From Enterobacteria phage GEC-3S, in sequence record HE978309: a stretch of 64,000 nt of DNA. One strand, given 5' to 3'. Numbering within the stretch: position 1 is the stretch's first letter; each line of letters starts with the position of its first letter. This document shows positions 2,804 through 61,082 of this stretch, piece after piece. Under the pieces are notes generated by a model. It ran no database searches and had not been told where the DNA came from. It worked only from the letters and a program-made list of their open reading frames with translations. The position numbers and the translations under genes were made by a program.

Positions 2804-2832
2804 ATTATGATATATCCCCGATCCAGTGTCAA
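2804..2832 (-). promoter_or_regulatory. sigma70-type early promoter (TTGACA-N17-CATAAT), -10 inside GGGGATAT/ATATCCCC palindrome
   Basis: read on minus strand; followed by leader ATCGAAAAC...AAGG and ATG 2773. Confidence 0.5.
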
Positions 2833-3140
2833 CAACTTTTTAATCTTTTTTTCAGTGCATCCATTACTCGCTCTGCGATCAGTTCTCGTAAGCACTGATA
2901 ACCATGATATTTGATGGCAATGTCACGCAGATCATTAACCAGTTCCCGTACTTCATGGTCTTTTAGATCGTCTCTATATTTCGATTTAATCGTATCTTTA
3001 GGTGGATTTCGGATAACCTGAAAACCTTGTTCTGCAATCACTGCGGCTTCTCGCTGGCGTTCATGCTGTACTGTATTTTTGATCAGGTCTACTTCCATGA
3101 ACTTTGTCATACTCATCATCATGTTATTCTTTTTTCTCAT
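2829..3140 (-). CDS. hypothetical protein (103 aa)
   Basis: start moved to ATG 3140 (MRKKNN...) with SD GAGGA; the track extension runs through promoter 3175-3202. Confidence 0.5.
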   Translation of the reverse strand: MRKKNNMMMSMTKFMEVDLIKNTVQHERQREAAVIAEQGFQVIRNPPKDTIKSKYRDDLKDHEVRELVNDLRDIAIKYHGYQCLRELIAERVMDALKKRLKSC

Positions 3141-3174
3141 TATTAAATCCTCATAAAAGAAAAGGGAGACTCCC

Positions 3175-3202
3175 ATTATAGAGAATCTCCCTTGTATGTC
3201 AA
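3175..3202 (-). promoter_or_regulatory. early promoter (TTGACA-N16-TATAAT) with flanking GGGAGA/TCTCCC palindrome
   Basis: -35 overlaps last codons of gp39. Confidence 0.5.
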
Positions 3203-3205
3203 GTG

Positions 3206-5029
3206 TTATGATTGCATCCAAATTTTGCGTTGATCTGCATCTTCGCTATAGAGCAAATCGAATAGCTCTTTATAGTTTTCCGGCAACGTGATGATCTCCA
3301 TTACAGGATCGTTGATCACGCGATGATAATCTGATTCTGTAAGAGATGCTAACCCTTTGATATATCTAATGCTATAACCTTTGATATTATCTCGGTCGTT
3401 CTCAAAATCTTCTAGGTCATAATACCATCGAACATCATCACCTTTCTTTGGTTCCGCAATGATAATAGGTGTTTTGACAAACCTGATTCGACCATCTTCG
3501 AACAATTCAGGCCAACGTGCAAAGAAAGAGATCAGACTAGGTTTAATAGACCCGATCCCGTCAGTATCAGCGTCTGTCATAATCGCAATATTTTTGTATT
3601 GCATAACTTCAAGTGCATCAACACCAAATTGCAAGCCAGTGATCGCCATGATGTTAAAAATTTCGGCGTTCTTAACGATCTTTGCCTCCGGTTGTTCCCA
3701 CGTTGTAAGAGTTTTACCTCGCAACGGGAAACCGCCATGTAAATCTTGATCACGTACAGAGATCAGATAGTTGATTGCGGAATCACCTTCCGTCAAAAAC
3801 AGGGTAGTTTCTGCGTCAGTTCCAATAAGGTTAGCTTTAACGTGTTTTGCTACCTTAGCCCGTTTCGCTGCCTTTGCTGCCTTAGTCGCTGCCGCTTTAT
3901 CTGCTGCCTCTTTGCGTGCCAGGACTACAGCAATAATAGGCATGATAATGTTTTCTTTCTTCGCAATGACTTTAGCCAGTTTTTTAAAGTCTAGATCAAT
4001 GTGTCGCTTGATATCACCAGTTGGATTAGTCAAGCGTTCTTTTGTCTGTGAATCAAAACGAAGGTTAGGCAATTCACGAACAATCAAAATACAGGTCAGT
4101 CCAGACTTAACCGCAGCTTTAGTAACATCAACCTTATATTCTTTCTTGATTCGTTTTACAATCTCTTCACAAAGATCATCTGTCACGTAGTCTACGTGTG
4201 TTCCCCCGTTTTTGGTAAACAGACCATTAGCAAAGGATACTGATTTAAAACCTTCTCCCTCGACCGCAGGAACTAGGGCAAGTGAAAAGTTTTTATCTTC
4301 AATGACAAACGGATCATCATTGTATAGTTTAGCATAATCCTTGAACTTACTAACAATACGTTTACCATTAAACTTAAACGTGATCTTAGGAAAGATTACG
4401 CTCAATGATTGCAGACGGTCATGAACAATATCTAAAACAGAGTTGTCCATCATATAACCTTCGAAGTGGTCGAAGTCTGGGCAAAATGTAACCTTTGTTC
4501 CCTTCAATTTTGATGGTTTCGATGACCATGTGATATTTTCAGCACCATTTGTGCATTGTACGGTCATTTCTGTTTCGCCGTCACAAGTTACACCAGTAAA
4601 CCAATCGCTAAAGAAATTTGACAACGACGACCCCACACCGTTCATACCTTGCGTTAATCGATTTGTATCATCAAAGTTAGACCCTGCTTTTGTTCGTGTC
4701 CATGCGGCTACAGGTTGCGGAATCTGCGTGCCCTCTGGGGTAGTAACCATATGTTGAGGAATACCGCGACCATTGTCTGTTACCGTAACAATATTGTTTT
4801 GGATATCGACGCTAATCACATTGGCAAATTCAAAATTAGTGCGGATCGCCTCGTCTACAGAGTTGTCGATGATCTCATCAATGATTTTAACCAGTCCAGG
4901 AACATATGAAATTTTTGTCCATTTACCGAACAGGAAACGTTGATGTTCTTCGTAAGTTGTTGATCCTATATACATTCCTGCACGCTTAAGGACATGTTCA
5001 CGATCAGATAAAATGCGAAACTCACTCAT
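3206..5029 (-). CDS. 39: DNA topoisomerase II large (ATPase) subunit, unsplit gp39
   Basis: 607 aa; GyrB-type N-terminus LSDREHVLKRAGMYIGS and DNGRGIP; ATG with SD GAGG; no gene-60-type split visible. Confidence 0.9.
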   Translation of the reverse strand: MSEFRILSDREHVLKRAGMYIGSTTYEEHQRFLFGKWTKISYVPGLVKIIDEIIDNSVDEAIRTNFEFANVISVDIQNNIVTVTDNGRGIPQHMVTTPEGTQIPQPVAAWTRTKAGSNFDDTNRLTQGMNGVGSSLSNFFSDWFTGVTCDGETEMTVQCTNGAENITWSSKPSKLKGTKVTFCPDFDHFEGYMMDNSVLDIVHDRLQSLSVIFPKITFKFNGKRIVSKFKDYAKLYNDDPFVIEDKNFSLALVPAVEGEGFKSVSFANGLFTKNGGTHVDYVTDDLCEEIVKRIKKEYKVDVTKAAVKSGLTCILIVRELPNLRFDSQTKERLTNPTGDIKRHIDLDFKKLAKVIAKKENIIMPIIAVVLARKEAADKAAATKAAKAAKRAKVAKHVKANLIGTDAETTLFLTEGDSAINYLISVRDQDLHGGFPLRGKTLTTWEQPEAKIVKNAEIFNIMAITGLQFGVDALEVMQYKNIAIMTDADTDGIGSIKPSLISFFARWPELFEDGRIRFVKTPIIIAEPKKGDDVRWYYDLEDFENDRDNIKGYSIRYIKGLASLTESDYHRVINDPVMEIITLPENYKELFDLLYSEDADQRKIWMQS

Positions 5030-5132
5030 TATTAAACCTCTTCATAACATAACCATAACTTACTGCAACCGCCACAAAGACGGCTGCAACAATCATATTA
5101 AAAATTGAGTGATTGTCAAGTATATGACTCAT
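5022..5132 (-). CDS. possible small hydrophobic peptide (36 aa)
   Basis: hand-read ORF MSHILDNHSIFNMIVAAVFVAVAVSYGYVMKRFNNE; ATGA-coupled to upstream stop; no clear SD; not in ORF track. Confidence 0.25.
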   Translation of the reverse strand: MSHILDNHSIFNMIVAAVFVAVAVSYGYVMKRFNNE

Positions 5133-5302
5133 GACACGCGCACATTTTTATCGTAATACCCGCCATTAATCCCGCGCGGGGCAGTTAATCCCTGTTTGCA
5201 TTCTTTACCACATTCAGGACATTCTGCCTTTTCACGCTCGGAAATTTTGCGGATTTTCTGAAATTGACCGTGTTCTTCACAAGAATAATCATATAATGGC
5301 AT
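5129..5302 (-). CDS. zinc-ribbon protein (57 aa)
   Basis: ATG 5302 with SD AAGGGG; CEEHG...CPECG cysteine pairs; track version is an N-terminal extension. Confidence 0.5.
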   Translation of the reverse strand: MPLYDYSCEEHGQFQKIRKISEREKAECPECGKECKQGLTAPRGINGGYYDKNVRVS

Positions 5303-5303
5303 A

Positions 5304-5973: not shown

Positions 5974-6216
5974 TTAAATATCCTCCGCGATATGTCGGAA
6001 CAACTCCAGATCGTTTTTATCCAGAATGAAACCGCTACAATCAATAATCCCGTTACCGTAATTATCGGTTAACAGTCGTTCCGTTGCCATGTATGCGCGT
6101 ACTTTGTTGTTAAAATTCATTACATGTTGTGCATAGTCACAATGAATCTTTTGACGCTTCCACGCGACAATTGATTGTAGATGTATTACATTAGCAATAT
6201 TATTAATAACAACCAT
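5974..6216 (-). CDS. hypothetical protein (80 aa)
   Basis: ATG 6216 (MVVINN...) with SD GAGG; stop abuts dexA start. Confidence 0.5.
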   Translation of the reverse strand: MVVINNIANVIHLQSIVAWKRQKIHCDYAQHVMNFNNKVRAYMATERLLTDNYGNGIIDCSGFILDKNDLELFRHIAEDI

Positions 6217-6217
6217 A

Positions 6218-6394
6218 TCAAAAACCTCGCTTAGTGAAATGTTCTGGCATTTTATTGATACATACAGCTTGGTAGTCACGAGATTTTTTTGACGAATTAA
6301 GAGCTACGGCCAAAAAATCCTGTAACTGTTCGTTTGTCATTTTTGGCTTACACCGCGTATCTAAACTCTTCGTTCTTCTAGCTTCATTAGCCAT
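6218..6394 (-). CDS. hypothetical small protein (58 aa), tandem paralog
   Basis: hand-read; C-terminus AVCINKMPEHFTKRGF; stop-T-ATG junction with next gene. Confidence 0.4.
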   Translation of the reverse strand: MANEARRTKSLDTRCKPKMTNEQLQDFLAVALNSSKKSRDYQAVCINKMPEHFTKRGF

Positions 6395-6395
6395 A

Positions 6396-6563
6396 TCAAA
6401 AACCTCGCTTAGTGAAATGCTCGATCATTTTATTGATACATGCAGCTTCACTATCGCCGGACACGTTCCAGCCGTATAGACCCCATCTAAAGCACATGGT
6501 AACAGTTCCATTGTGACGGCTTACCGTCACATCATTAAATTCTGGGATACTTCGCATAATCAT
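6396..6563 (-). CDS. hypothetical small protein (55 aa), tandem paralog
   Basis: hand-read; SD GAGGAA; C-terminus AACINKMIEHFTKRGF nearly identical to the neighbour. Confidence 0.4.
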   Translation of the reverse strand: MIMRSIPEFNDVTVSRHNGTVTMCFRWGLYGWNVSGDSEAACINKMIEHFTKRGF

Positions 6564-8279: not shown

Positions 8280-9034
8280 TATAAACCTACCTTAGCTTTC
8301 ATCAATTCAATCCACGACGCATCAATCGGAAGCCCGTATTTCACGCGTTCTTTTTGTGCTGGCGTTAAGTTCTCATACTTAGAAAGAGATTCAATCAAAA
8401 CGCTGGTATATTTTAGCACGATTTCGGCATTGTTTGCAATAGCCTTAAGTTTTTCTTCTTTCTTGTTGATTTCGCTAAGTGCTTGCTTGAGATCTGCAAT
8501 TTTCTGATAACGTTCTTCCATACGGAAGAGAGTATTTTTAATCGCTCGCTCTGCTGCCTCTGCTTTCTCTGGTTCGTTGTGCTTTTTGTGGCGCTCGATT
8601 GCTAATTTCTTTTCTTCGATTGCCATTTCCTGATTTTTGATGCGATTCTCGTTAAGTTCGATCCACTCGATGTACTTCGCACGTAGGGCAATTTCATCAT
8701 CAGAAAGTTTACCGTTAGTTCCTAGTTCCTGGATCTCTTTAAGAGATTCGATAGTGTGATTGCCACGGAAAGAATTATATTTCAGTTTAACCGGAATTAC
8801 ATTGCCATCAACATATCCCAGATTGCAATCAATGCGCTCTAATGAGAGTCCGTCATCACCTTCACCGAAAGCCTCACCTGAATAGGCGCAATGAGTCTGA
8901 CGGTAAATGTTACGCACAGTGACTAAGCTCATAGAGAAGTCTTTGTTGCGACGTGAAGCGCCAGCCATGATAGAGTTCAGACGGAAAACAACCAGCGCCA
9001 ATTCTTCGTTAGATTTAAAAGCAAACAGTTTCAT
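8279..9034 (-). CDS. hypothetical protein with C-terminal coiled coil (T4 srd position)
   Basis: 251 aa; ATG with SD AAGGAGA; identity as Srd is positional only. Confidence 0.5.
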   Translation of the reverse strand: MKLFAFKSNEELALVVFRLNSIMAGASRRNKDFSMSLVTVRNIYRQTHCAYSGEAFGEGDDGLSLERIDCNLGYVDGNVIPVKLKYNSFRGNHTIESLKEIQELGTNGKLSDDEIALRAKYIEWIELNENRIKNQEMAIEEKKLAIERHKKHNEPEKAEAAERAIKNTLFRMEERYQKIADLKQALSEINKKEEKLKAIANNAEIVLKYTSVLIESLSKYENLTPAQKERVKYGLPIDASWIELMKAKVGL

Positions 9035-9063
9035 AATTGATTCTCCTTAGTTGGTATGTGTTT

Positions 9064-9092
9064 ATTATTGTCTATCTGGTTTGTGCTGTCAA
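9064..9092 (-). promoter_or_regulatory. early promoter (TTGACA-N17-AATAAT)
   Basis: upstream of ORF 8279-9034 with conserved leader ...AAGGAGAATCAATTATG. Confidence 0.45.
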
Positions 9093-9095
9093 CAC

Positions 9096-9599
9096 TTAAA
9101 TTAAAGAAAATTTGTAAATCTCTATCAGATCGCCGTTACACGCGTAAACTTCCTCGATCTCATCAAGGATCATGGTCGTCCCTGTCTTGTATATGCACTC
9201 TCGCTCATCTGCCAACATAGCATACAAAGACAGTCGAGTAGTCGGATTGTCATACTCTTTAGACACCACTCGGTCAATAGCATGTTCGTAATAATTCATG
9301 CAAGGCTTGGTAGGTTTTATTGCAATAATCTTTCCTGTTGCATAAACATCGGTTGCAAAGTCCTCTGCTGTTGATTGCAGTGGCGTAAAGCTCATAGGAC
9401 GCTCTACAACGAAAGAATCACCTACAATTAAGGTATCCAGCTTACGGCCTTCTCTTTTGCTCACACCGCGATACAAGGCTTCATGATGCACTAATCGCTC
9501 AGTCTTTTCAATCAATCCATTAAGGATCGACATATCGATATTTTCTTTAGAGTTCATCACTTCATCAATGATGTTAAGTTCTTCTGGTGTAAATTGCAT
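9096..9599 (-). CDS. ADP-ribosyltransferase-like protein (ModA/ModB-like)
   Basis: 167 aa; R-S-E type motifs (YRG, QSTAED, DERE); lies between srd-position gene and gp56 as modA/modB do in T4. Confidence 0.45.
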   Translation of the reverse strand: MQFTPEELNIIDEVMNSKENIDMSILNGLIEKTERLVHHEALYRGVSKREGRKLDTLIVGDSFVVERPMSFTPLQSTAEDFATDVYATGKIIAIKPTKPCMNYYEHAIDRVVSKEYDNPTTRLSLYAMLADERECIYKTGTTMILDEIEEVYACNGDLIEIYKFSLI

Positions 9600-9608
9600 A
9601 ATAAAAAA

Positions 9609-9632
9609 GCCTCCAATCTTTCGACGGGAGGC
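9609..9632 (-). terminator. intrinsic terminator hairpin GCCUCC-N12-GGAGGC + U6 that contains the SD of the downstream gene
   Basis: stem then TTTTTTATT running straight into ATG 9599. Confidence 0.5.
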
Positions 9633-9660
9633 ATAATAAAACCATTATAGAGTAGTGTCA
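9633..9660 (-). promoter_or_regulatory. early promoter (TTGACA-N17-TATTAT) abutting the terminator hairpin
   Basis: predicted start falls in or near the hairpin. Confidence 0.4.
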
Positions 9661-9668
9661 ACTAATTT

Positions 9669-10187
9669 TTAGTAGCCGCGTTCTTGACGGGCGAAGTTTT
9701 CAGCATTTTTCAGATAGTACAGAATAAAGAGTTCTTGAGCGTCAATACCCAGCGGGATCATCTTTGACAGAATGAAGTGGATCGCGTCCACAAATTCAAA
9801 TTTCACTTCAAGCTGATCTTCCGGTGACAGTTCAGAGAATTTACGCGCTCGCGCTTCTCCGTGGTTCTTTTTCCACATTTTCCAGATTGCACTTGCATCT
9901 TTACCATTGGACATTCCACCCAGCGATGTGTAAAGCTCTCGTGTTTCGTCTGCGATAGCGTCATCCATCCGTTGCATCCAATCCAGCATTTCACCGCAAG
10001 TCTCTAGCTTAGTTGGATTTGGGACCCAATCAAATTTTTCGGATAATGCAACCTGCAAACCAGTTTGCATTTCGAGCATCACCTGAAACGGATCTTTACC
10101 TTCTGCAATCGCGTGATGATATGCGGCGATAGCCGCGTTAATATCTTTTTCGTTAACCAGACCAGCACAAGAATTAAATTCTGACAT
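9669..10187 (-). CDS. 56: dCTP pyrophosphatase (dCTPase, MazG-like)
   Basis: 172 aa from ATG 10187 with SD GAGGTG; track start is GTG; T4 gp56-like sequence and position before gp61. Confidence 0.75.
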   Translation of the reverse strand: MSEFNSCAGLVNEKDINAAIAAYHHAIAEGKDPFQVMLEMQTGLQVALSEKFDWVPNPTKLETCGEMLDWMQRMDDAIADETRELYTSLGGMSNGKDASAIWKMWKKNHGEARARKFSELSPEDQLEVKFEFVDAIHFILSKMIPLGIDAQELFILYYLKNAENFARQERGY

Positions 10188-14270: not shown

Positions 14271-14584
14271 ACATAGCCCCCAACTACACGCATAACAAAG
14301 GTCTTGAGTTTATACCAGAAAGTTTCTTTTTTCAACTTTTCTTCTGCTTCTTTGATCTGCGCGGTTAACGCCTTAATGACGTGTGGATATACCACATCAC
14401 GATCTGACGGCGTGGAGTAGTCGACCACAATACCTTTAGTGTCTGGATCGTATTCAACATTATGAATATAGACAATATGATGTTCTCCCTCTTCATCAAC
14501 AATTATCAATTCCTGAATAACTGTCTTCATTGCTTCTTGAATCAAGCCGTGTGCTTCTTCTAAACTTGTTGGCTTCTTATCCAT
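14267..14584 (-). CDS. hypothetical protein (105 aa; T4 gene 40 position)
   Basis: ATG with SD GAGAGGA. Confidence 0.45.
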   Translation of the reverse strand: MDKKPTSLEEAHGLIQEAMKTVIQELIIVDEEGEHHIVYIHNVEYDPDTKGIVVDYSTPSDRDVVYPHVIKALTAQIKEAEEKLKKETFWYKLKTFVMRVVGGYV

Positions 14585-14606
14585 AATATAATCCTCTCTA
14601 GATATG

Positions 14607-14630
14607 AAAAAGGGGCACGTAGCCCCTTTA
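14607..14630 (-). terminator. intrinsic terminator after uvsX
   Basis: AAAGGGGC-UACGU-GCCCCUUUUU on minus strand. Confidence 0.6.
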
Positions 14631-14639
14631 CTACCATTG

Positions 14640-15721: not shown

Positions 15722-15910
15722 CTATTCAGTTAATCCGTAATACTTTAATTGCTTCATTGATATTCGATCTTTGTAGTGCTCTTGAATTAACTTTTTCATC
15801 GCATCAACATCGATCGTCACAAATACTTCGTTGCTGTGATTTCCGTGAACTTTCTTGAAATGCTCTATGCCTTCCTCACGTTCACGTTTAATCTTTTCAA
15901 TGTCTCTCAT
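15722..15910 (-). CDS. hypothetical protein (62 aa)
   Basis: ATG 15910 downstream of promoter 15955-15982. Confidence 0.45.
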   Translation of the reverse strand: MRDIEKIKREREEGIEHFKKVHGNHSNEVFVTIDVDAMKKLIQEHYKDRISMKQLKYYGLTE

Positions 15911-15954
15911 AGTATATTTCTCACGTTGGCGGGTATCGTCACCCAACACCCGCC

Positions 15955-15982
15955 ATTATACACACTCGATCTTAAATGTCAA
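15955..15982 (-). promoter_or_regulatory. early promoter (TTGACA-N16-TATAAT) followed by palindrome GGCGGGT...ACCCGCC
   Basis: -35 lies at the 3' end of gp43. Confidence 0.5.
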
Positions 15983-46541: not shown

Positions 46542-46559
46542 ATTGATTGATAATATTAC

Positions 46560-46781: not shown

Positions 46782-46822
46782 TTTTGATTCTCCTAGAAAG
46801 TGTATCTCGTTTCGATGTGTGT

Positions 46823-46851
46823 ATTATGCAATAACACCGGAACGCTGTCAA
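46823..46851 (-). promoter_or_regulatory. early promoter (TTGACA-N17-CATAAT)
   Basis: followed by leader ACACACATCGAAACGAG. Confidence 0.5.
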
Positions 46852-46869
46852 CACTTTCTAAGAAAAATT

Positions 46870-47501: not shown

Positions 47502-47836
47502 TTGTAACCCTCCTCTGAAAGCACATCCCAGATCGTTGAGTCAAGGTGCATTAAATTCCACATAATAGAGTCATAACTACCGAAGCCAGAAGTAAAAATT
47601 ACATCACACTGGCGATAGGTCTTATGAAAATCGGTGGCTGTCTCTGCATCAATCGGCATATCGTCACCAGAAAGCACCAGACATTTAAGAATCATAACTC
47701 TGTTAGCCGTTGGCGCTTGCTTAGTCTTTTCAGCATATTTTTCGATGATCCGTTTTGCCTTTTCTTCTTTGATACGTCCAGACCAAATCCGGTTTCGGTA
47801 TTGATTCATAATAATTTCAATCACATCATTTTGCAT
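47498..47836 (-). CDS. hypothetical protein (112 aa)
   Basis: ATG; SD GGAGA. Confidence 0.45.
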   Translation of the reverse strand: MQNDVIEIIMNQYRNRIWSGRIKEEKAKRIIEKYAEKTKQAPTANRVMILKCLVLSGDDMPIDAETATDFHKTYRQCDVIFTSGFGSYDSIMWNLMHLDSTIWDVLSEEGYK

Positions 47837-55691: not shown

Positions 55692-55907
55692 TTATTTTCC
55701 TTTTCTCTGTTTACGTTTATAAAAGTAATACATTACCTCATCACATCCGGTGATCCAACATGCTATGGCAGTAAACAGGTTTACAATTCCCAACACACCT
55801 ACTGACGCGGCGCTGTCAACAGACATAGGAACAGTAAAGGCCATAGCTAACATAGCAACGCCACAAATGACATTAAGCACCATTATAATAAGACCGAAGA
55901 AAACCAT
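55692..55907 (-). CDS. small membrane protein (71 aa)
   Basis: start at ATG 55907 behind SD GGAGGA. Confidence 0.45.
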   Translation of the reverse strand: MVFFGLIIMVLNVICGVAMLAMAFTVPMSVDSAASVGVLGIVNLFTAIACWITGCDEVMYYFYKRKQRKGK

Positions 55908-55909
55908 TG

Positions 55910-56089
55910 TCAATCCTCCGACACAAGAAAACCAACAATCACGCCAGTGATAAGACATGATGCGCCGCTAATCAGACAACCCGCACCAAGTGATTCCCAC
56001 CAGATCAGAGAAGCGACAATAACACAGAATCCCCATACTACCGCAATCACAACATAGGCAAGGGTCGCCCAAAACATATATTTGTTCAT
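55910..56089 (-). CDS. small membrane protein (59 aa)
   Basis: start at ATG 56089, ATGA-coupled. Confidence 0.45.
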   Translation of the reverse strand: MNKYMFWATLAYVVIAVVWGFCVIVASLIWWESLGAGCLISGASCLITGVIVGFLVSED

Positions 56090-56274
56090 AATAAATCCCA
56101 TTCACCAAACAAATAAGAAAAAAGCCATATCAACAGAAACGAGGCAATTGATCCGGCAAGCAAAATGATATTAGAGAATCCGCCGTCTATCCAGGCGACA
56201 AAACAGAATACGCCAGTATAGAAGCATAAACCCATTACAAAGCATACTATAAGCAACCATAGACAAAACTCCAT
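56086..56274 (-). CDS. small membrane protein (62 aa)
   Basis: ATG with SD GGAGGG. Confidence 0.5.
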   Translation of the reverse strand: MEFCLWLLIVCFVMGLCFYTGVFCFVAWIDGGFSNIILLAGSIASFLLIWLFSYLFGEWDLL

Positions 56275-56335
56275 AGAAAGCCCTCCATCGAGATAAATTA
56301 GTACGGGTAGGGGACTGCACTACCCGCTTTGTTAA

Positions 56336-56494
56336 TCAACGCAGAGCTTCTTCTAGCGCGATCCCAAACCATCCACAAACAACGCCCATACAGACAGCTA
56401 CAAGAAGATTCATTCTCTCTTTAGGGATCATTGCAATCATAACAACAACCATACAGAAAGCCATTACCATTGATGTTAACATTTGTTCAACCAT
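56336..56494 (-). CDS. small membrane protein (52 aa)
   Basis: hand-read MVEQMLTSMVMAFCMVVVMIAMIP...; SD AAGGTG; not in track. Confidence 0.4.
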   Translation of the reverse strand: MVEQMLTSMVMAFCMVVVMIAMIPKERMNLLVAVCMGVVCGWFGIALEEALR

Positions 56495-56496
56495 TA

Positions 56497-56829
56497 TCAC
56501 ACCTTTAAAGTCATAGACGCATAAACATTAATGCCAGGCCAGTTAGGATCGCAATTATACTCAACATCCCACAAATAAAGCGGTTTAGATGTATCAGCCA
56601 AGTTTTTAAAATCTTCTACCCACATTTCAAGGCTATATGATGGATAAACTAGGCTATCATATCCGCCGTAACGTTGGCCTACTGGTCGGTCAGTAAAAAC
56701 TACCTCAAGATCCGGTAATTCTTTTTCAAGGATAACCGCCAGCGCATAAATCAGACGGTCTTCCTTGTTACGCTGCCGAAGGACCGTTGTCAGTTGGTTT
56801 TTCTGGTTCACTAGCAAGCACCTCCACAT
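56497..56829 (-). CDS. hypothetical protein (110 aa; possible frameshifted continuation of upstream ORF)
   Basis: no SD at its ATG; overlaps upstream ORF by about 62 nt in the +1 frame. Confidence 0.35.
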   Translation of the reverse strand: MWRCLLVNQKNQLTTVLRQRNKEDRLIYALAVILEKELPDLEVVFTDRPVGQRYGGYDSLVYPSYSLEMWVEDFKNLADTSKPLYLWDVEYNCDPNWPGINVYASMTLKV

Positions 56830-57088
56830 TTTCACAGAATGAAATTTTCACAGACACAATTTTACCATAAGTGAAGAATGAATATACATTATCGAGATAT
56901 TCAACGTCACCTACAATCACATCAAACTGCGGATCAGCCACTGCCGCAACATATTCTACCAGTTCATCAAGAGAATGCAACTTAATTTCATCAATTCGGC
57001 TGTATTTGGTTGCATCTTTGATTTTAAAACCACGTTCTTTCAGCTTATCAATTAGAATTTCACGCGGAGTTTCAAACAGTTTGCTCAT
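56768..57088 (-). CDS. hypothetical protein (106 aa)
   Basis: ATG with SD GTGAGGATTATATT. Confidence 0.45.
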   Translation of the reverse strand: MSKLFETPREILIDKLKERGFKIKDATKYSRIDEIKLHSLDELVEYVAAVADPQFDVIVGDVEYLDNVYSFFTYGKIVSVKISFCENVEVLASEPEKPTDNGPSAA

Positions 57089-57109
57089 AATATAATCCTC
57101 ACATTAAAT

Positions 57110-57307
57110 CTAAAATTTGTTAACGACGAATTGCATAATTAGACTAATCACAAACATTGCAAACCAAGTATAAATGCAACAGATAAAAGCTACATACAAT
57201 TCAATCTGGTCAGAGAATACACCGGGTAAAAGCATTAGCAAAATAAAAACAGTAAAGACGCTAGCGATACCCGCAACAAAACCAATATCATTTTTACTAA
57301 TCGTCAT
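57110..57307 (-). CDS. small membrane protein (65 aa)
   Basis: ATG 57307, ATGA-coupled. Confidence 0.45.
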   Translation of the reverse strand: MTISKNDIGFVAGIASVFTVFILLMLLPGVFSDQIELYVAFICCIYTWFAMFVISLIMQFVVNKF

Positions 57308-57516
57308 CAAGTCACCGTTTTGTAAAGAAACACAATAAAATCCAAGACAAGAAAGACAGTGTAAATGATCATCGTCAAGACAGTAAACATTGTCAAATTT
57401 TCATCGTTAGTTAATTCATAGTCGCCCATCCATACAATCACAAGATATAGCATTGAAAGAATGGAAGCACCTACGAAGTTAAAAAACATATTCTTGAGCG
57501 TCATATTAACAACCAT
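57307..57516 (-). CDS. small membrane protein (69 aa; start may be 57504)
   Basis: two TM helices. Confidence 0.45.
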   Translation of the reverse strand: MVVNMTLKNMFFNFVGASILSMLYLVIVWMGDYELTNDENLTMFTVLTMIIYTVFLVLDFIVFLYKTVT

Positions 57517-57688
57517 CGCGGCTTAAGTCAACAGCAATTGCATACAGCATAATGAATATGCTAGCAGATCCAAGAATCAATACACCCTCACATTTTGAAA
57601 CTCGCTCATCAAAATGTAACATTATCCATCCGAGGATGTTAAAGGCGCAGACCGCGCCTATGTTCGCTAACCAATTAATCTTTTTCAT
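57506..57688 (-). CDS. small membrane protein (60 aa)
   Basis: ATG with SD TAAGGTA. Confidence 0.45.
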   Translation of the reverse strand: MKKINWLANIGAVCAFNILGWIMLHFDERVSKCEGVLILGSASIFIMLYAIAVDLSRDGC

Positions 57689-57696
57689 AATATACC

Positions 57697-58023
57697 TTAG
57701 AAAGAAACAGTTTTCAAGAAATCCAGATTTTCAGTACCGAAAACAGAAAAGTAGTGTTTTCCTTTTTCGGTTTTAGAGAAAGCGATTGTCTTCTCTACAT
57801 GGTGACGGAAGCCCGACAGACGATCACCCAGGTCAAGGCGGCAAGCGTAAGTAGTGCCGTTTTCGAAAGTAACCTCGATTTGAGTTTTGTCATATTCGCT
57901 TTCATAGGCTTTTGCTGCCGCGTCCTGTGCTTTACGCTCGAAGTCTTCGAAGTGGAATACTTCGTTTGCGTTAGCGAATACAGAAGATTCAGAGAAGATA
58001 ACTTTAACAGATACTGGTTTCAT
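57697..58023 (-). CDS. hypothetical protein (108 aa)
   Basis: leader AAGGAGTATCAAAATG. Confidence 0.5.
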   Translation of the reverse strand: MKPVSVKVIFSESSVFANANEVFHFEDFERKAQDAAAKAYESEYDKTQIEVTFENGTTYACRLDLGDRLSGFRHHVEKTIAFSKTEKGKHYFSVFGTENLDFLKTVSF

Positions 58024-58065
58024 TTTGATACTCCTTAGTAGTTCGTGTTTCGTTTCGATGGGTGT

Positions 58066-58094
58066 ATTATGCTATACACCCTCTCGCGTGTCAA
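58066..58094 (-). promoter_or_regulatory. early promoter (TTGACA-N17-CATAAT) inside GGGTGTAT/ATACACCC palindrome
   Basis: followed by leader CATCGAAACGAAACAC. Confidence 0.55.
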
Positions 58095-58102
58095 CAACTT
58101 TT

Positions 58103-58291
58103 TTAGTCTTTTTTCATAATTTCTAGAGCAGTTTCTACAGCACCTTTCCAACCCTCCCACATAATGGACATAGTAATGAAGTTAAAGCACCCGCAGGAAT
58201 CAACCTTTTTAGAGATAAACCATTCTACAAACGCTTCGCTCATACCATGCTCTTTAGCGGATTCGCGTAATTGTTCAATTTGGTCTTCCAT
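58103..58291 (-). CDS. hypothetical protein (62 aa)
   Basis: SD GAGGTGA. Confidence 0.45.
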   Translation of the reverse strand: MEDQIEQLRESAKEHGMSEAFVEWFISKKVDSCGCFNFITMSIMWEGWKGAVETALEIMKKD

Positions 58292-58300
58292 AGTATCACC

Positions 58301-58489
58301 TCAACACTTAACGTTATTCAAACGATTTTGAAAGTACATATAGCAAGCATAATTTTGTTTTGGCTGTACCGTATCAGATAAGCACGCTTTTACAGCCTCG
58401 CGGTCCGATGGATCTACGCCCTCAGCGTTAAGCAATGCTAAGATCTGATAATAGCGTACTCTCAGTTGCGTTAATGGTTTCTCTCCCAT
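58301..58489 (-). CDS. hypothetical protein (62 aa)
   Basis: start at ATG 58489 behind SD GGAGGG. Confidence 0.45.
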   Translation of the reverse strand: MGEKPLTQLRVRYYQILALLNAEGVDPSDREAVKACLSDTVQPKQNYACYMYFQNRLNNVKC

Positions 58490-58501
58490 AAAACCCTCCA
58501 A

Positions 58502-58729
58502 TTAAAGTTGTTCTGCAATGTATGCGGTGCATTTACGGAGTTTAGCCATCGCACCACCTTTCATGTCGCTTGCACCTACAAGGTTCATGATCTCTAAGCG
58601 GTCAGTCGGATTCAGTCTAGTAGCCCAGATCTGGTTAGCCAGTTCCATTTTACCCATCTGCGGTTCCATCTCAAACAGTTCGCGCTCAAAGTCGATAATT
58701 TCTTTTGCTGCGTCTTTAAAGTTAATCAT
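58502..58729 (-). CDS. hypothetical protein (75 aa)
   Basis: leader GGGAGAATCAAAATG. Confidence 0.45.
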   Translation of the reverse strand: MINFKDAAKEIIDFERELFEMEPQMGKMELANQIWATRLNPTDRLEIMNLVGASDMKGGAMAKLRKCTAYIAEQL

Positions 58730-58758
58730 TTTGATTCTCCCGTTTCGTTGATGGTTGT

Positions 58759-58787
58759 ATTGTAGGGGAGTTATCCTCCCCTGTCAA
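58759..58787 (-). promoter_or_regulatory. early promoter (TTGACA-N17-TACAAT); spacer palindrome GGGGAG-GATAA-CTCCCC
   Basis: minus-strand read. Confidence 0.5.
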
Positions 58788-58795
58788 CACTTTTA

Positions 58796-58981
58796 TCAGA
58801 AATATGCAATATAGTTTGCCAGTCCTACAGAGTCATCATTCGGCATTGCTTTTACTGCCAGTTCAAACCCTGCTTCAACTTTCTGTTTAGCGGATTCTTC
58901 GTTATAACCCCAGATTACCAGAATAGCTACTACGTTTTCTTTGCTTACTGCTTTCAGTGCTTTAGTGATGCGACGTGCCAT
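58796..58981 (-). CDS. hypothetical protein (61 aa)
   Basis: leader GGAGAATCAAATTATG. Confidence 0.45.
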   Translation of the reverse strand: MARRITKALKAVSKENVVAILVIWGYNEESAKQKVEAGFELAVKAMPNDDSVGLANYIAYF

Positions 58982-59027
58982 AATTTGATTCTCCGTTTAA
59001 GAAAGTGTGTTTCGTTTCGATGGGTGT

Positions 59028-59056
59028 ATTATGCTATAGGCCGGATCTGGTGTCAA
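59028..59056 (-). promoter_or_regulatory. early promoter (TTGACA-N17-CATAAT)
   Basis: directly downstream of terminator 59090-59107. Confidence 0.5.
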
Positions 59057-59089
59057 CAACTTTTTTAAAAAATTTTAGGCAATAAAAAA

Positions 59090-59107
59090 GCCACTCCGAA
59101 GAGTGGC
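59090..59107 (-). terminator. intrinsic terminator with UUCG tetraloop
   Basis: GCCACUC-UUCG-GAGUGGC + UUUUUUAUU on minus strand. Confidence 0.65.
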
Positions 59108-59245
59108 TTATAGGGAAGGTAGCGAATCTTCCTTGTCTCCAACCTGCTAGCGGCCTAGCAAGTGAATGCTTTAGCGTACCGGATCGCCCACATACGCTGT
59201 AATAAATGCGGCTAGGTGACGTCCAAATCATTCTAACCGCGCTGT
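59108..59245 (-). ncRNA. candidate small non-coding RNA (about 135 nt) from late-type promoter to intrinsic terminator
   Basis: TATAAATA at 59250-59257 then hairpin-rich sequence ending in the terminator; the only ORF here runs through promoter and terminator. Confidence 0.35.
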
Positions 59246-59249
59246 CTTT

Positions 59250-59257
59250 AGTTCACT
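59250..59257 (-). promoter_or_regulatory. T4 late promoter core TATAAATA (exact consensus)
   Basis: immediately after stop of ORF 59259-59477. Confidence 0.4.
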
Positions 59258-59258
59258 A

Positions 59259-59477
59259 TTATTTATATCGCTTTCTCTCGCGACGTTTTTGATCTTCTTC
59301 CTTGATAGAGTTAAATGCATCAAAAAGACACATGACACTGATAATGAACATAACCGTATTTTCTACGATATCCCACGGCTTCGCATCAGTACAGATCCCC
59401 CAAACGGTAAGAAATGCAAATAAGGCAGAAGAGATCACAAGCATGATACTTGCTAAGATATAAAAAGTCATTTTCAT
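59259..59477 (-). CDS. small membrane protein (72 aa)
   Basis: ATGA-coupled. Confidence 0.45.
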   Translation of the reverse strand: MKMTFYILASIMLVISSALFAFLTVWGICTDAKPWDIVENTVMFIISVMCLFDAFNSIKEEDQKRRERKRYK

Positions 59478-59656
59478 GGTTTTACCTCAATTCTTCGATA
59501 TTCATCACACATCCACGCAGTAAGCAAGAATCCCAACACATAAGCAACAAAATACGTTAATGCTTCTTCTGGTTCGGTGCTATGCGCCATCATCAGACCA
59601 GCGAGAAAGGTCTTAACAATTACATTTAAAATAATTAGCCACGCAAATAATTTCAT
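59474..59656 (-). CDS. small membrane protein (60 aa)
   Basis: start at ATG 59656, ATGA-coupled. Confidence 0.45.
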   Translation of the reverse strand: MKLFAWLIILNVIVKTFLAGLMMAHSTEPEEALTYFVAYVLGFLLTAWMCDEYRRIEVKP

Positions 59657-59877
59657 CGTTTGCCCCATTTCGGACGAGTCTTTTCAAACTTATACATTAC
59701 GCAACAATCTCGAATCATCCACGTAACAAGAGCACCAGTCAACACAGACAACACACAGAAGAAGTAAAACGGTCCGGTTGCATTATCAACATGAGCAAGC
59801 CATGTAAAGAAAACACATGCAAGGAATGTAAAGAACATCATAAAACACAAGAAAGCAAAATATTTTATGCTACTCAT
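59653..59877 (-). CDS. small membrane protein (74 aa)
   Basis: start at ATG 59877, ATGA-coupled. Confidence 0.45.
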   Translation of the reverse strand: MSSIKYFAFLCFMMFFTFLACVFFTWLAHVDNATGPFYFFCVLSVLTGALVTWMIRDCCVMYKFEKTRPKWGKR

Positions 59878-59984
59878 AGCGCCACCATACAACAGATCAT
59901 AAGAAAACCCAACGCAATAAGAATTGCATCAAATTTAGTGAACTCCGGTCCACCTATCAACATCATTCGTTCCTGTTCAGTCAT
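59874..59984 (-). CDS. possible small membrane peptide (36 aa)
   Basis: hand-read; ATGA overlaps at both ends; not in track. Confidence 0.3.
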   Translation of the reverse strand: MTEQERMMLIGGPEFTKFDAILIALGFLMICCMVAL

Positions 59985-60178
59985 AGATCACAGAGCCATC
60001 TTAAAGCACCACATAAAGCGAGCAGAATACTAGGTATAAACGAGATCAAAACAAGTTGGCAAAAATCATCTAAGGTAACACCGGAATAGCTACCTACTGT
60101 AACAACACCGATCATCAGACACAGAAAGAAAACAAATGCAACCAGAAACAAAGTATTGCTAAACAGTTTAGTGATCAT
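59981..60178 (-). CDS. small membrane protein (65 aa)
   Basis: start chosen at ATG 60178 with SD GGGGTG. Confidence 0.4.
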   Translation of the reverse strand: MITKLFSNTLFLVAFVFFLCLMIGVVTVGSYSGVTLDDFCQLVLISFIPSILLALCGALRWLCDL

Positions 60179-60371
60179 TAGACACCCCACGACGATCAAT
60201 TTCAAAAACTTTTTTATCATCAACGAAGCATGTCACAACTGCCTCGTTGACTTCCGCAAATTGTTGTGTTACCCACTTAAGGTCAGAGCGAAACAATGTT
60301 CTATTAATAACAAATGCTTTACCGATCTTATCCTTACCCATAAATTTTGCTTTAACCATATCCAATTCCAT
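60168..60371 (-). CDS. dmd: Dmd-like antitoxin (inhibitor of RnlA/LsoA-type toxins)
   Basis: 67 aa; MEL..V.F.G...K...D..W.TQQFAEVN.A.V..FVDDKKV.E.D.RG pattern matches T4 Dmd as I recall it. Confidence 0.45.
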   Translation of the reverse strand: MELDMVKAKFMGKDKIGKAFVINRTLFRSDLKWVTQQFAEVNEAVVTCFVDDKKVFEIDRRGVSNDH

Positions 60372-60380
60372 ATTATCACC

Positions 60381-60539
60381 TTATTTGCTAATCGCTAAAC
60401 CCAATCCGAAGAGAGCACCCGATGCTACAGTATACCCGAAAGTTTCAAATGCAGTAAAGATATCTAAGCCACCAGCTAACAGAGTTGCAGTAAACAGAGT
60501 ACCAGCTACGAACATAAAAGTTTTACCGATAAATTTCAT
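60381..60539 (-). CDS. small membrane protein (52 aa)
   Basis: hand-read; leader GGAGAATCAAAATG; not in track. Confidence 0.4.
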   Translation of the reverse strand: MKFIGKTFMFVAGTLFTATLLAGGLDIFTAFETFGYTVASGALFGLGLAISK

Positions 60540-60570
60540 TTTGATTCTCCTTTCGTTTGTTTGTGGGGGT

Positions 60571-60599
60571 ATCTTACTACCCCCGTTTCATGTTGTCAA
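60571..60599 (-). promoter_or_regulatory. early promoter (TTGACA-N17-TAAGAT) inside GGGGGTAG/ACCCCC palindrome
   Basis: minus-strand read. Confidence 0.5.
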
Positions 60600-60605
60600 C
60601 TATTT

Positions 60606-60980
60606 TTAAGAATATTTTACTTCGTCTACAATGTCTTTCATGACATTGATTTCCATTCCGGTCAGAACACGTTGGAACATGTGCTGCACATACGCTTTCA
60701 GGTATTCATTTGATGGCTTGCTATCGAAAGTCTTTTTAGTGTAGTAGTCATCACCGAAAGCTACTGTAATTATATTTTCGTCGTCGTTCCAAGCGATATA
60801 AGCAAATTTGCCGTTATCCCAGAAGCGAGCACTAATTGCTACTTTTGTTGAATCGAATCCTACTTCGCTGTGAGATTCAAGAACTACTTGCGTGCCAGTT
60901 TCTTTATGAATGTAGTAGCGGGATACTAAGTCAAAGTTACGGGTGTAGTGACATTCGAATTTATCTTTAAACATCATCAT
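60606..60980 (-). CDS. hypothetical protein (124 aa)
   Basis: start at triple ATG 60974-60980 behind GGAGAATCAAA; track extension overlaps promoter. Confidence 0.5.
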   Translation of the reverse strand: MMMFKDKFECHYTRNFDLVSRYYIHKETGTQVVLESHSEVGFDSTKVAISARFWDNGKFAYIAWNDDENIITVAFGDDYYTKKTFDSKPSNEYLKAYVQHMFQRVLTGMEINVMKDIVDEVKYS

Positions 60981-61017
60981 TTTGATTCTCCTAAGTGTGT
61001 TTCGTTTCGATATGTGC

Positions 61018-61046
61018 ATTATTCTATAGTCGTTTATGGTTGTCAA
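61018..61046 (-). promoter_or_regulatory. early promoter (TTGACA-N17-AATAAT)
   Basis: directly downstream of terminator 61064-61082. Confidence 0.45.
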
Positions 61047-61063
61047 CACCTAAAAACAAAAAA

Positions 61064-61082
61064 CCCCGAAAAATTTTCGGGG
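61064..61082 (-). terminator. intrinsic terminator
   Basis: CCCCGAA-AAUUU-UUCGGGG + UUUUUUGUUUUU on minus strand. Confidence 0.6.

Follow-up and report, generated by a model that had tools for sequence, protein, structure and literature searches.

The DNA analysed here, which we call the window, is a stretch of 64,000 nucleotides (record HE978309) that comprises the first 64 kb, from rIIA to gene 3, of an RB49/Phi1-like T4-type coliphage (genus Krischvirus). It is colinear with Phi1, RB49 and Sf20 at 97-98% identity, has an average A/T fraction of 0.60 and encodes regB. An initial annotation had proposed that at least 24 copies of a recurring promoter-hairpin-leader unit lie on its minus strand. 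As a cassette we counted a promoter with at most one mismatch in the -35 hexamer and an acceptable -10 hexamer, lying in an intergenic region or at most 30 nt from the upstream stop codon and followed by a start codon 25-62 nt past the -10; four sites in which the -10 overlaps the start codon were dropped. This gave 27 intergenic cassettes between positions 2771 and 61091, at coordinates that agree with those first proposed, and one further degenerate copy (26543-26632). They are given below together with a terminator-only relic; cassette numbers in the text (e.g. 43398) are the positions of the -35 hexamers.

60978-61091 (minus), before ORF125: upstream terminator hairpin 61083-61063 and T-run; TTGACA 61046; -10 AATAAT; leader ATCGAAACGAAACAC; GGAGAATCAAAATG
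60537-60624 (minus), before ORF124: TTGACA 60599; GGGGGTA/TACCCCC around -10 TAAGAT; GGAGAATCAAAATG; MFE -14.0, z -3.3
58979-59110 (minus), before ORF117: terminator 59109-59088 upstream; TTGACA 59056; CATAAT; leader exactly CATCGAAACGAAACAC
58727-58812 (minus), before ORF116: TTGACA 58787; spacer filled by palindrome GGGGAGGATAACTCCCC
58021-58119 (minus), before ORF113: TTGACA 58094; GGGTGTAT/ATACACCC stem around -10 CATAAT; leader exactly CATCGAAACGAAACAC
52677-52762 (minus), before ORF095 (operon with regB): TTGACA 52737; GGGGGTA/TACCCCC stem around -10
51828-51925 (minus), looser cassette before vs.1: TTGACT 51893; TATTAT; weak upstream hairpin; SD GGAG
48033-48134 (minus), before ORF084: 12-bp terminator 48133-48106; TTGACA 48093; GGAGAATCAAAATG
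46779-46900 (minus), before ORF080: TTGACA 46851; CATAAT; leader CATCGAAACGAGATAC; upstream stem weak, A/T-rich only
45622-45720 (minus), before ORF078: terminator 45719-45698, the end of the gene 38 module; TTGACA 45681; TATAAT
43325-43423 (minus), before ORF070: TTGACA 43398; spacer palindrome GGGGATCACGTATCCCC
42657-42747 (minus), before ORF068: TTGACA 42722; 10-bp ATGCGGTTAT/ATAACCGCAT stem around TATAAT; GAGGATTATATTATG
38706-38793 (minus), before ORF060: TTGACA 38768; stem around -10 TAAAAT; ATG at 38708 the likeliest start codon
37796-37883 (minus), before frd.2: TTGACA 37858; GGGAGTA/TACTCCC stem around -10; GAGGATTATATTATG
36563-36648 (minus), before ORF057: TTGACA 36623; TATAAT; GGGAGTAT/ATACTCCC stem around -10
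34057-34158 (minus), before ORF055: upstream terminator AGCCGATCC...GGGTCGGCT and T-run; TTGACA 34119; TATAAT
32891-32989 (minus), before ORF053: TTGACG 32964; palindrome GGGGATCGCGAGATCCCC in spacer
25460-25541 (minus), before ORF038: TTGACG 25516; palindrome CGGGGAGAAATCCCCG in spacer
20647-20762 (minus), before gene 44: promoter TTGACT 20737; TATAAT; leader hairpin GGGAGTG..TACTCCC
18648-18736 (minus), before gene 43 (DNA polymerase): promoter TTGACA 18711; TATAAT
15908-16007 (minus), end of gene 43, before ORF025: promoter TTGACA 15982; TATAAT; 9-bp leader hairpin
14582-14696 (minus), promoter-like, before gene 40: TTGACA 14671; TAGCAT; leader hairpin and T-run; GAGGATTATATTATG
9597-9686 (minus), before modB: TTGACA 9661; TATTAT; SD inside leader hairpin and U-run
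9032-9117 (minus), before srd: TTGACA 9092; AATAAT; GGAGAATCAA; no strong hairpin
5027-5144 (minus), before gene 39 (topoisomerase): promoter TTGACA 5119; TATGAT; leader hairpin
3138-3227 (minus), before ORF005: TTGACA 3202; TATAAT in loop of 13-bp stem, then T-run
2771-2857 (minus), before ORF004: TTGACA 2832; GGGGATAT/ATATCCCC stem around CATAAT; leader CATCGAAAAC
26543-26632 (minus), degenerate copy before gene 47: terminator hairpin 26623-26596; TGaTATAGT (extended -10), no -35; leader CATCGAAAACGAAGAGAGG
53895-53980 (minus), terminator-only relic: hairpin 53971-53947 and cassette-type tail TTTCGTTTT; no -35; repeat family D7

The proposed recurrence of the unit on the minus strand was borne out, since TTGACA followed after 16-18 nt by TATAAT, with up to one mismatch allowed in the -10, is found 33 times on that strand of the window and not once on the plus strand, whereas 50 dinucleotide shuffles averaged 0.68 such sites and never exceeded 2. 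The top promoter sites were identical in an independent scan of 42000-61500, and the largest direct-repeat families found by an unbiased repeat finder (D1-D4, D6, D7, D9, D11, D13 and D16) are the cassette. The -35 hexamer is a perfect TTGACA in 22 of the 27 cassettes and the -10 has 0-2 mismatches, with the ATG 25-62 nt further on. A G or C lies directly 5' of TTGACA in 90% (consensus G), and most of the 16 positions 5' of the G(T/G)TG that precedes TTGACA have an A/T fraction of 0.63-0.90. The cassettes divide the region into units that hold 1-17 genes (median 2), seven of them with a single gene, and 18 of the 27 genes downstream are unnamed ORFs in the Phi1 annotation. The further claim that cassettes flank most paralog and orphan genes did not hold, as a cassette stands immediately before only 27 of the roughly 130 genes.

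Strong local hairpins are enriched 4.4-fold in the cassette footprints (28 versus 6.3 expected, p ~2e-11) and are found in 23 of the 27 cassettes. In five cassettes the hairpin lies upstream and a T-run follows it, in four a palindrome occupies the whole spacer, in nine the stem arms stand on either side of the -10, so that the -10 lies in the hairpin loop, and in five the hairpin is within the leader; a stem overlapping the -35 was not clearly seen in any of the 27. The stem sequences vary between copies (GGGGG, GGGTG, GGGAG, GCGGTT) and the stem position is kept. Among orthologues, pairing is retained in 29 of 35 changed stem pairs.

The absence of the elements from related genomes in which the flanked genes are conserved had been named in advance as a ground for refutation, and the opposite was observed: at the 27 sites the promoter hexamers are nearly invariant in five related genomes. 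In the comparison of six genomes, all 27 sites are stable in position, and variable columns make up 2.5% of the -35 and 0.6% of the -10 as opposed to 14% of the spacer and upstream tract and 18% of third codon positions. The -35 and -10 hexamers are under purifying selection, which supports the function of the promoters predicted here.

We consider it very probable that these units are promoter-early stem-loops (PeSLs), the regulatory heads of early transcription units of an RB49-like T4-type phage. PeSLs have been defined in the coliphages RB49 and phi1 (Arbiol, Comeau, Kutateladze, Adamia & Krisch, 2010, Genome Biol Evol 2:140, PMC2839356), in which a stable stem-loop, often of polyG/polyC, occupies one of five positions relative to the promoter. 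The match to these cassettes drawn in the initial annotation is upheld, as the window belongs to the defining phage group and every described component, namely the A/T-rich tract, the sigma70-consensus promoter, the G/C-rich stem-loop and the SD with its ATG, is present, with the RB49/phi1 elements lying at orthologous positions in the same genus. Because PeSLs were first described in this very group, the finding is correct but already known. Promoters at the same sites and with the same G-TTGACA consensus have been reported for RB49 (Desplats et al., 2002; Nolan et al., 2006, Virol J 3:30, PMC1524935). The consensus of the latter study, with G at -33, either T or C at -12 and C from -3 to -1, is shared by the present sites and is stated to agree with 5'-end mapping, and the 51 early promoters predicted there include sites 2832, 9092, 9661, 32964, 34119, 36623 and 37858; GenBank AY343333 (RB49) annotates 15982, 18711 and 20737 as early promoters. 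The TransTerm terminators of Nolan et al. (2006) also overlap the cassettes, although in both of these studies promoters and terminators were handled apart and no composite repeated cassette was described. The cassette family is present in about 58 Krischvirus records of the phage collection searched; in each listed Krischvirus genome BLAST detects 8-13 copies of this subfamily, and no member of the sequence family was found in that collection outside the genus.

According to the PeSL model, each unit comprises an A-rich tract, a T4-type early promoter (G-TTGACA, 16-18 nt, -10) presumably read by the host sigma70 RNA polymerase, a start-site region that is C-rich and then reads CAT, a short stereotyped leader and a strong ribosome-binding site, with a G/C-rich hairpin placed before the promoter, inside it or directly behind it. 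Only polymerases arriving from upstream would transcribe the hairpin in full, and read-through would therefore be stopped or weakened there and every unit insulated. Promoter and terminator activity, mapped 5' ends and mini-circle formation are attributed to the cassettes by analogy with the literature on orthologous elements. PeSL206/205 has a promoter activity of about 13,000 Miller units, and the PeSL211/210 stem-loop cut lacZ expression about as strongly as rrnB T1 (PMC2839356). The 17-nt stem-loop GGGGATCACGTATCCCC of cassette 43398 is identical to that of RB49 PeSL211/210, the element tested as a terminator.

As dispersed direct repeats, the units can offer the phage recombination system short patches of homology, and recombination at them may occasionally add, remove or swap the genes between them. 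A survey of the six genomes for indels of 100 bp or more (15 loci) showed that gene shuffling by way of cassettes, as proposed, is only partly supported and weak in these data: crossovers inside a cassette account for just two, while ten are insertions of nuclease or homing-endonuclease genes. The ORF004 indel falls inside the leader of cassette 2832, and for the gene 38 indel the endpoint lies between the -10 of cassette 45681 and the leader; in phage MIZ5 gene 38 is absent and the promoter half of this cassette is replaced by a different one. These crossovers lie in the same -10-to-ATG zone as those in the mini-circles with cassette-internal junctions sequenced by Arbiol et al. (2010; PMC2839356). 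Of the remaining three loci, one lies at tandem paralogues and one at a 58-nt repeat, both direct repeats distinct from the cassettes, and no repeat was found at the third. Although 6 of the 15 loci lie in cassette footprints, which make up about 5% of the sequence, four of these six are nuclease-gene insertions and the figure is confounded by non-coding gap length. No non-coding gaps are longer than those at the cassette junctions, and hence insertions there may simply be the ones that were tolerated. It is therefore conceivable, though we rate it as distinctly the less probable reading, that we are dealing with ordinary, immobile early promoters and their ribosome-binding sites, alike through shared functional constraint and old local duplication, with recombination as incidental as at any short direct repeat. 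Such a view would fit the preponderance of nuclease-gene insertions, the occurrence of two of the five other indels at non-cassette repeats and of one at no repeat, the fixed position of 27/27 sites and the shortness of exact identity between cassettes, which has a median of 8 nt, reaches at least 20 nt in 5 of 351 pairs and is at most 32 nt (59056 versus 58094). It accounts less well for the likeness running on through the leader, which is under no known constraint (the 32 nt of 59056/58094 and 21 nt common to 59056 and 43398), for the two indels with cassette-internal crossovers and for the sequenced mini-circles. The overall importance of cassette-mediated recombination is inferred. Nothing essential differs from Arbiol et al. 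(2010), except that in the window and the six genomes homing-endonuclease insertions outnumber cassette-mediated events, which tempers their emphasis.

A G/C-rich hairpin with a U-tract directly behind it, the form of a canonical intrinsic (rho-independent) terminator, is present upstream at 61083-61063, 59109-59088, 48133-48106, 45719-45698 and about 34157-34136, as well as in cassettes 9661, 3202 and 14671. Neither the -10-flanking nor the spacer-filling hairpins have a U-run behind them, but AUCGAAAC or UAUACU instead, and a minus-strand terminator scan did not pick them up; as AUCGAAAC rather than a U-tract follows them, the nine -10-flanking hairpins are not canonical intrinsic terminators. 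This, together with the -10 hexamer lying in the hairpin loop of these nine copies and the speculation of the PeSL authors that GGGG...CCCC is a possible protein target, might suggest that the promoter-internal G/C-rich palindromes work as DNA and not as RNA terminators, either as a site for a recombination or regulatory protein or as a structure that alters promoter opening. We regard this as unlikely, given that a spacer-type stem-loop with the sequence of that in cassette 43398 lowered downstream expression in vivo, that the variation of stems between copies suits a structural better than a sequence-specific requirement and that no candidate protein is known. Termination has been published for a spacer-type stem-loop only (PMC2839356), and the cassette hairpins that have no U-tract are presumed to insulate. 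That the promoter sites are chance consensus matches in A/T-rich DNA, for which a loose scan (9/12 matches) with 89 hits against 54 expected could be cited, is refuted by the excess of strict matches, all on the coding strand, by the recovery of the family by a repeat finder given no motif and by the hexamer conservation between genomes.

Composite terminator-promoter elements between variable genes, also proposed as recombination linkers, are known as PeSL-like elements from other T4-like phages (Comeau, Arbiol & Krisch, 2014, PMC4122927) and from the T-even internal-protein locus; with T4-type early promoters and weaker A/T-rich stems, they are analogues and not homologues. The PeSL authors also drew a comparison with morons and integron cassettes, which likewise place a small gene with its own promoter and terminator between resident genes. 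Unlike these, PeSLs are oriented as the neighbouring genes and have no integrase or attC-type site; mobility would need general homologous recombination.

Among the leader sequences of the proposed unit, GGAGAATCAA occurs 12 times, on the minus strand only, and in 11 instances within cassettes, whereas GAGGATTATATTATG is found in cassettes in only 4 of its 8 occurrences and is therefore a general ribosome-binding region, not a cassette feature. The exact leader CATCGAAACGAAACAC is restricted to a cassette subfamily, with two copies and six at up to three mismatches. By eye, the cassette alignment has a looser CAT(C/A) 5-7 nt past the -10 in 16 of the 27.

To the PeSL description we can add that the cassette ribosome-binding site GGAGAAUCAAA, which goes without mention in Arbiol et al. 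(2010; PMC2839356) as a RegB-type site, fits the RegB/S1 consensus GGAGRAYARAA at 10 of 11 positions; the mismatch, at position 8, is a C where A is strongly preferred. The RegB/S1 target in T4 is a single-stranded, intergenic 11-nt sequence of early transcripts, located in the SD regions of early genes as are the sites described here (Durand et al., 2006, PMC1702504). RB49 RegB is a divergent family member, and judged by sequence match the cassette sites are putative targets. With at most one mismatch the consensus occurs 12 times on the minus strand, each time in a ribosome-binding region; nine of these matches are in cassettes, one is in a displaced cassette leader (2597) and one belongs to regB itself, whose candidate site is GGAUAAUAAAA.

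The elements that recur on the minus strand of this window are promoter-early stem-loops (PeSLs), which are already known in the same phage group. Megablast against the phage collection aligns the window colinearly, at 97-98% identity, with the genomes of Escherichia phage Phi1 and RB49 from their position 1 on, and the same search matched about 57 related genomes, all T4-type coliphages of the genus Krischvirus. The region spans rIIA to gene 3, with replication genes and hyperplastic regions rich in small unnamed ORFs, and nearly all of its genes are carried on the minus strand; no tRNA was found within the 64 kb, nor any match to an Rfam family at its gathering score. PeSLs have been defined in phi1 and RB49, with 52 and 51 copies per genome, as a sigma70-consensus promoter with an A/T-rich region upstream and a stem-loop, often polyG/polyC, whose position is between the boxes, over one or other of them, upstream or downstream; the 3' end of the element supplies the SD and ATG for the gene that follows, in most cases an ORFan (Arbiol et al., 2010; PMC2839356). 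The same study reported that the PeSL211/210 stem-loop reduces the expression of a downstream lacZ to a degree similar to rrnB T1 and that PeSL206/205 has an activity of ~13,000 Miller units. RB49 PeSL211/210 reads TTGACA-GGGGATCACGTATCCCC-TATACT, followed by the ATCAAAACGAAACACACTTTCTTAA leader, and its palindrome is identical to that of cassette 43398 of the window (cassettes are named by the first base of the minus-strand -35); with this identity and the PeSL features found, the reading as PeSLs made in the initial annotation is borne out. In an earlier catalogue 51 RB49 early promoters were predicted, with G at -33, T or C at -12 and C at -3 to -1, a consensus that agrees with the 5'-end mapping by Desplats et al. 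(2002) (Nolan et al., 2006; PMC1524935). When sites were cross-checked against the supplement of that study and GenBank annotation, cassette sites of the window were present in its coordinate list, where several of the hairpins are TransTerm terminators, and the RB49 GenBank record has the sites around gene 43 and gene 44 annotated as early promoters. PeSLs have been published as one way in which large lytic phages can exchange accessory genes and keep their regulation intact, and one further RB49-like genome with PeSLs is nothing new in kind.

A scan of the window for a perfect TTGACA, a 16-18 nt spacer and a -10 within one mismatch of TATAAT gave 33 matches on the minus strand and none on the plus strand, the chance level of this strict match being 0.68 on average in dinucleotide shuffles. 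The same promoter sites came out at the top of a separate consensus scan of 42000-61500, and the cassette formed the largest direct-repeat families in the output of a motif-free repeat finder. Sites were then filtered on promoter quality and gene context, the latter meaning an intergenic position or one at most 30 nt from the stop codon upstream, and a distance of 25-62 nt from the -10 to the start codon; promoter-like sites at 57717, 31236, 22442 and 11792 were dropped, their -10 overlapping the start codon. That left 27 cassettes between 2771 and 61091, consistent with the count of at least 24 and the extent first proposed. The units that they bound hold 1-17 genes (median 2), seven of them a single gene, and the region is indeed partitioned as had been suggested; single-gene units include those of ORF125 (61046/60599), ORF117 (59056/58787), frd.2 (37858/36623) and modB (9661/9092); however, only 27 of about 130 genes have a cassette of their own, and the cassettes therefore do not 'flank most' orphan genes. 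Further sites related to the cassettes or their promoters are as follows.

26543-26632, degenerate copy before gene 47, with a terminator hairpin, an extended -10 (TGaTATAGT), no -35 and the leader CATCGAAAAC
53947-53971, terminator-only relic
260, 2218, 2713, 21542, 22560, 32366, 36765, 38891, 45438, 29784, 57396 and others, minus strand, promoters inside coding sequence

The last group comprises about 14 more perfect TTGACA promoters, found on the coding strand only and far above chance. They typically lie 80-140 nt ahead of the stop of the host gene and 60-170 nt ahead of the next start, have neither hairpin nor cassette leader, and several are in the list of predicted RB49 early promoters. 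We also observed that the ORF060 start in the Phi1 annotation (window 38741) falls within a cassette promoter and is probably mis-annotated; the ATG at 38708, with GGAGAATCAACA ahead of it, agrees with the promoter geometry and with the shorter RB49 annotation.

Around the promoter, an A-rich tract with G(T/G)TG at its end precedes the -35, TTGACA is directly preceded by G or C in 90% of copies (consensus G), and the -10 is followed by a C-rich stretch and CAT(C/A), which in a subfamily only runs on as CGAAACGAAACAC and then the ribosome-binding site. A conserved leader had been put forward as a mark of the family, but the exact leader CATCGAAACGAAACAC occurs only twice in the window, and six times at up to three mismatches; the leader thus does not define the family, and for this reason our search was anchored on the promoter. 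All 12 copies of GGAGAATCAA are on the minus strand and 11 of them lie in cassettes, while GAGGATTATATTATG has eight copies, four in cassettes, and is found also at promoterless genes such as rIIA, which makes it a general translation start region. A GGAG-containing SD is present in 17 of 26 cassette genes versus 30 of 105 other genes (odds ratio 4.7, p = 6e-4).

The 11-nt motif targeted by RegB/S1 in T4, GGAGRAYARAA, is located in intergenic SD regions of early mRNAs (Durand et al., 2006; PMC1702504). At up to one mismatch, this consensus has 12 sites on the minus strand of the window, all in ribosome-binding regions, nine of them in cassettes (GGAGAATCAAA), one in a displaced leader before ORF003 and one at regB itself. 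The regB site, GGATAATAAAA, agrees with the published GGAU SD of RB49 regB, which is cleaved in vivo. In the cassettes the one deviation from the consensus is a C at position 8, for which there is a strong preference for A, so that cleavage by RegB is plausible but unproven and the sites are putative targets. As the near-consensus site GGAGAAUCAAA is essentially exclusive to cassettes, we tentatively suggest that the cassettes carrying it could be self-limiting 'burst' modules, in which very strong transcription by the host polymerase at infection would be followed by switch-off through RegB cutting of the SD. If this is the case, RegB and S1 would cut within the GGAG of GGAGAAUCAAA RNA and not GAGGAUUAUAUU RNA, cassettes and genes with the other site, GAGGAUUAUAUUAUG, would escape the switch-off, a gene recombined behind a GGAG-type cassette would inherit its temporal programme, and the transcriptional cassette would be tied to the post-transcriptional early shut-off of the phage. 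RegB goes unmentioned in the PeSL paper (Arbiol et al., 2010; PMC2839356), and the RegB-like ribosome-binding site is an addition to the PeSL description.

Cassette footprints contain 28 strong local hairpins versus 6.3 expected (4.4-fold, p ~2e-11), and a strong hairpin is present in 23 of the 27 cassettes.

61046, 59056, 48093, 45681, 34119, cassettes with an upstream hairpin and T-run
58787, 43398, 32964, 25516, cassettes with a hairpin filling the spacer
60599, 58094, 52737, 42722, 38768, 37858, 36623, 3202, 2832, cassettes with stem arms flanking the -10 and the hexamer in the loop
20737, 15982, 14671, 9661, 5119, cassettes with a hairpin within the leader

The stems vary from copy to copy (GGGGG/CCCCC, GGGTG/CACCC, GGGAG/CTCCC, GCGGTT/AACCGC) while their position is constant, which points to selection on structure. 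The folding energy of whole cassettes (119-nt segments) was not clearly below that of random windows (p = 0.09) because cassettes are A/T-rich; folding z-scores (mean -1.95) and the local density of strong hairpins were used instead. The nine hairpins that flank the -10 were aligned and are given as per-copy stems, column-wise covariation being left out since the stems occur in two registers one base apart, which a single bracket string would miscount. Among orthologues, 29 of 35 changed stem pairs are still paired, mostly via G-U and with a two-sided change in only one, and the broken pairs are mostly terminal, evidence that is modest given the low divergence among the genomes. According to the mapped start region, the own transcript of these cassettes begins at or after the 3' arm, and the full hairpin would therefore be present only in read-through RNA from upstream; this fits a role as insulators, which we infer for this class, with no U-tract. 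Three hairpins are described separately.

9600-9640, minus strand, modB leader hairpin GCCUCC...GGAGGC with U-run, directly ahead of the modB AUG
49052-49120, minus strand, hairpin CCCCAGAUU ... AAUCUGGGG upstream of rI
63562-63582, 9-bp G/C-rich hairpin with T-runs, near the junction of the minus-strand genes and plus-strand ORF130

The modB hairpin (MFE -15.0, z -4.0) has the SD in its 3' arm; a transcript initiated at the promoter of the cassette should begin within the 5' arm, so that its SD is unpaired, and read-through RNA would be terminated or have its SD masked. In the rI hairpin (MFE -19.6 kcal/mol, z -4.2), a portion of the rI Shine-Dalgarno is base-paired, and a late-promoter motif, TATAAATA, is located between the arms. 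It resembles a T4 arrangement in which RNA reading through early in infection cannot be translated, and translation is from late transcripts that begin within the hairpin. A late promoter has been listed at the matching RB49 position, Pl:48756 (Nolan et al., 2006; PMC1524935). The third hairpin is probably a bidirectional terminator.

The possibility that the elements are missing from related genomes, raised in the initial annotation as a point against its reading, does not hold. In a six-genome MAFFT alignment of the window with Phi1, RB49, JSE, Sf20 and MIZ5, hardly any change in the promoter hexamers is seen at the 27 sites in any of the five relatives. Variable columns make up 2.5% of the -35 and 0.6% of the -10, compared with ~14% of the spacer and upstream tract, 6.7% of the leader and ribosome-binding site and 18% of third codon positions, and both hexamers thus bear the signature of purifying selection. 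By BLAST, the family of cassette 43398 was found in ~58 Krischvirus records, with 8-13 detectable subfamily copies per listed genome; the only match beyond Krischvirus was a borderline one of 41 nt in three copies of one siphovirus genome. This match (vB_EcoS_ACG-M12 and two identical records, 25347-25386; 88% identity, E = 5e-4) covers the cassette leader and ribosome-binding site in an unrelated 46 kb coliphage and may be due to chance.

It had also been proposed that the cassettes mediate gene shuffling, and the six genomes bear this out only in part. Of 15 loci with indels of 100 bp or more, two involve cassettes and 10 are insertions of nuclease genes, among them introns or inteins within gene 43 and nrdD.

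3202, 5006-5042, 9646-9668, 14597, 17448-17459, 26538, 35155, 39566-40294, 53909-53930, 55096-55123, nuclease-gene insertions (HNH-AP2 or Endonuclease_7 by Pfam, or annotated homing endonuclease)
39553-40308, minus strand, HNH-AP2 homing endonuclease gene (Pfam HNH_3 + AP2) between nrdC and dam, in the window and Sf20 only among the six genomes
6213-6448, ORF009.1 indel, missing from RB49, JSE, Sf20 and MIZ5
43973-44446, ORF073/074 indel, one paralogue missing in JSE
45687-46561, gene 38 (tail-fibre adhesin), missing from MIZ5 (45584-45646) and present in the other five

Paralogue-mediated deletion of ORF111 was considered and rejected, as ORF110, ORF111 and ORF112 share no protein similarity; no repeat was found at this indel. 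Direct repeats other than cassettes account for two further indels, namely a 58-nt repeat at the gene junction of ORF009.1 (91% identity, 178-nt spacing; repeat family D19) and the tandem paralogues ORF073/074 (53% identity, 216-nt repeat spacing). Cassette exchange is seen at cassettes 2832 and 45681. In JSE, which is without ORF004, cassette 2832 runs into a canonical leader ending GGAGAATCAAAATG and then ORF003; in the window, ORF004 lies inside the leader of this cassette. MIZ5 is without gene 38 and its flanking terminators, and a different, spacer-palindrome cassette supplies the promoter half at 45681, the switch point lying between the -10 and the leader, the same zone to which mini-circle crossovers have been mapped (Arbiol et al., 2010; PMC2839356). 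Six of the 15 indel loci fall within cassette footprints, which make up ~5% of the sequence, but four of these are endonuclease insertions, and as cassette junctions are the longest non-coding gaps, insertion tolerance is a confounder. Runs of exact identity between cassettes are short, 32 nt at most, and just 5 of 351 pairs have one of at least 20 nt. Cassette-mediated exchange therefore happens, but it is a minority of events in this sample, which suggests that homing endonucleases rather than cassette exchange are behind most large indels of the region. With ~57 Krischvirus genomes now available, the shuffling hypothesis is properly testable.

A last difference between the genomes concerns ORF050, which belongs with ORF049 and ORF051 to a paralogue family with the common N-terminus MKWE(I/V)GKTY (repeat families D10 and D14). 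About 160 nt of its N-terminal part (31517-31679) are wholly unlike the five relatives, with no DNA match elsewhere in the window, while the protein matches Phi1 ORF050 exactly over its C-terminal half; this stretch is a mosaic replacement within the paralogue family.
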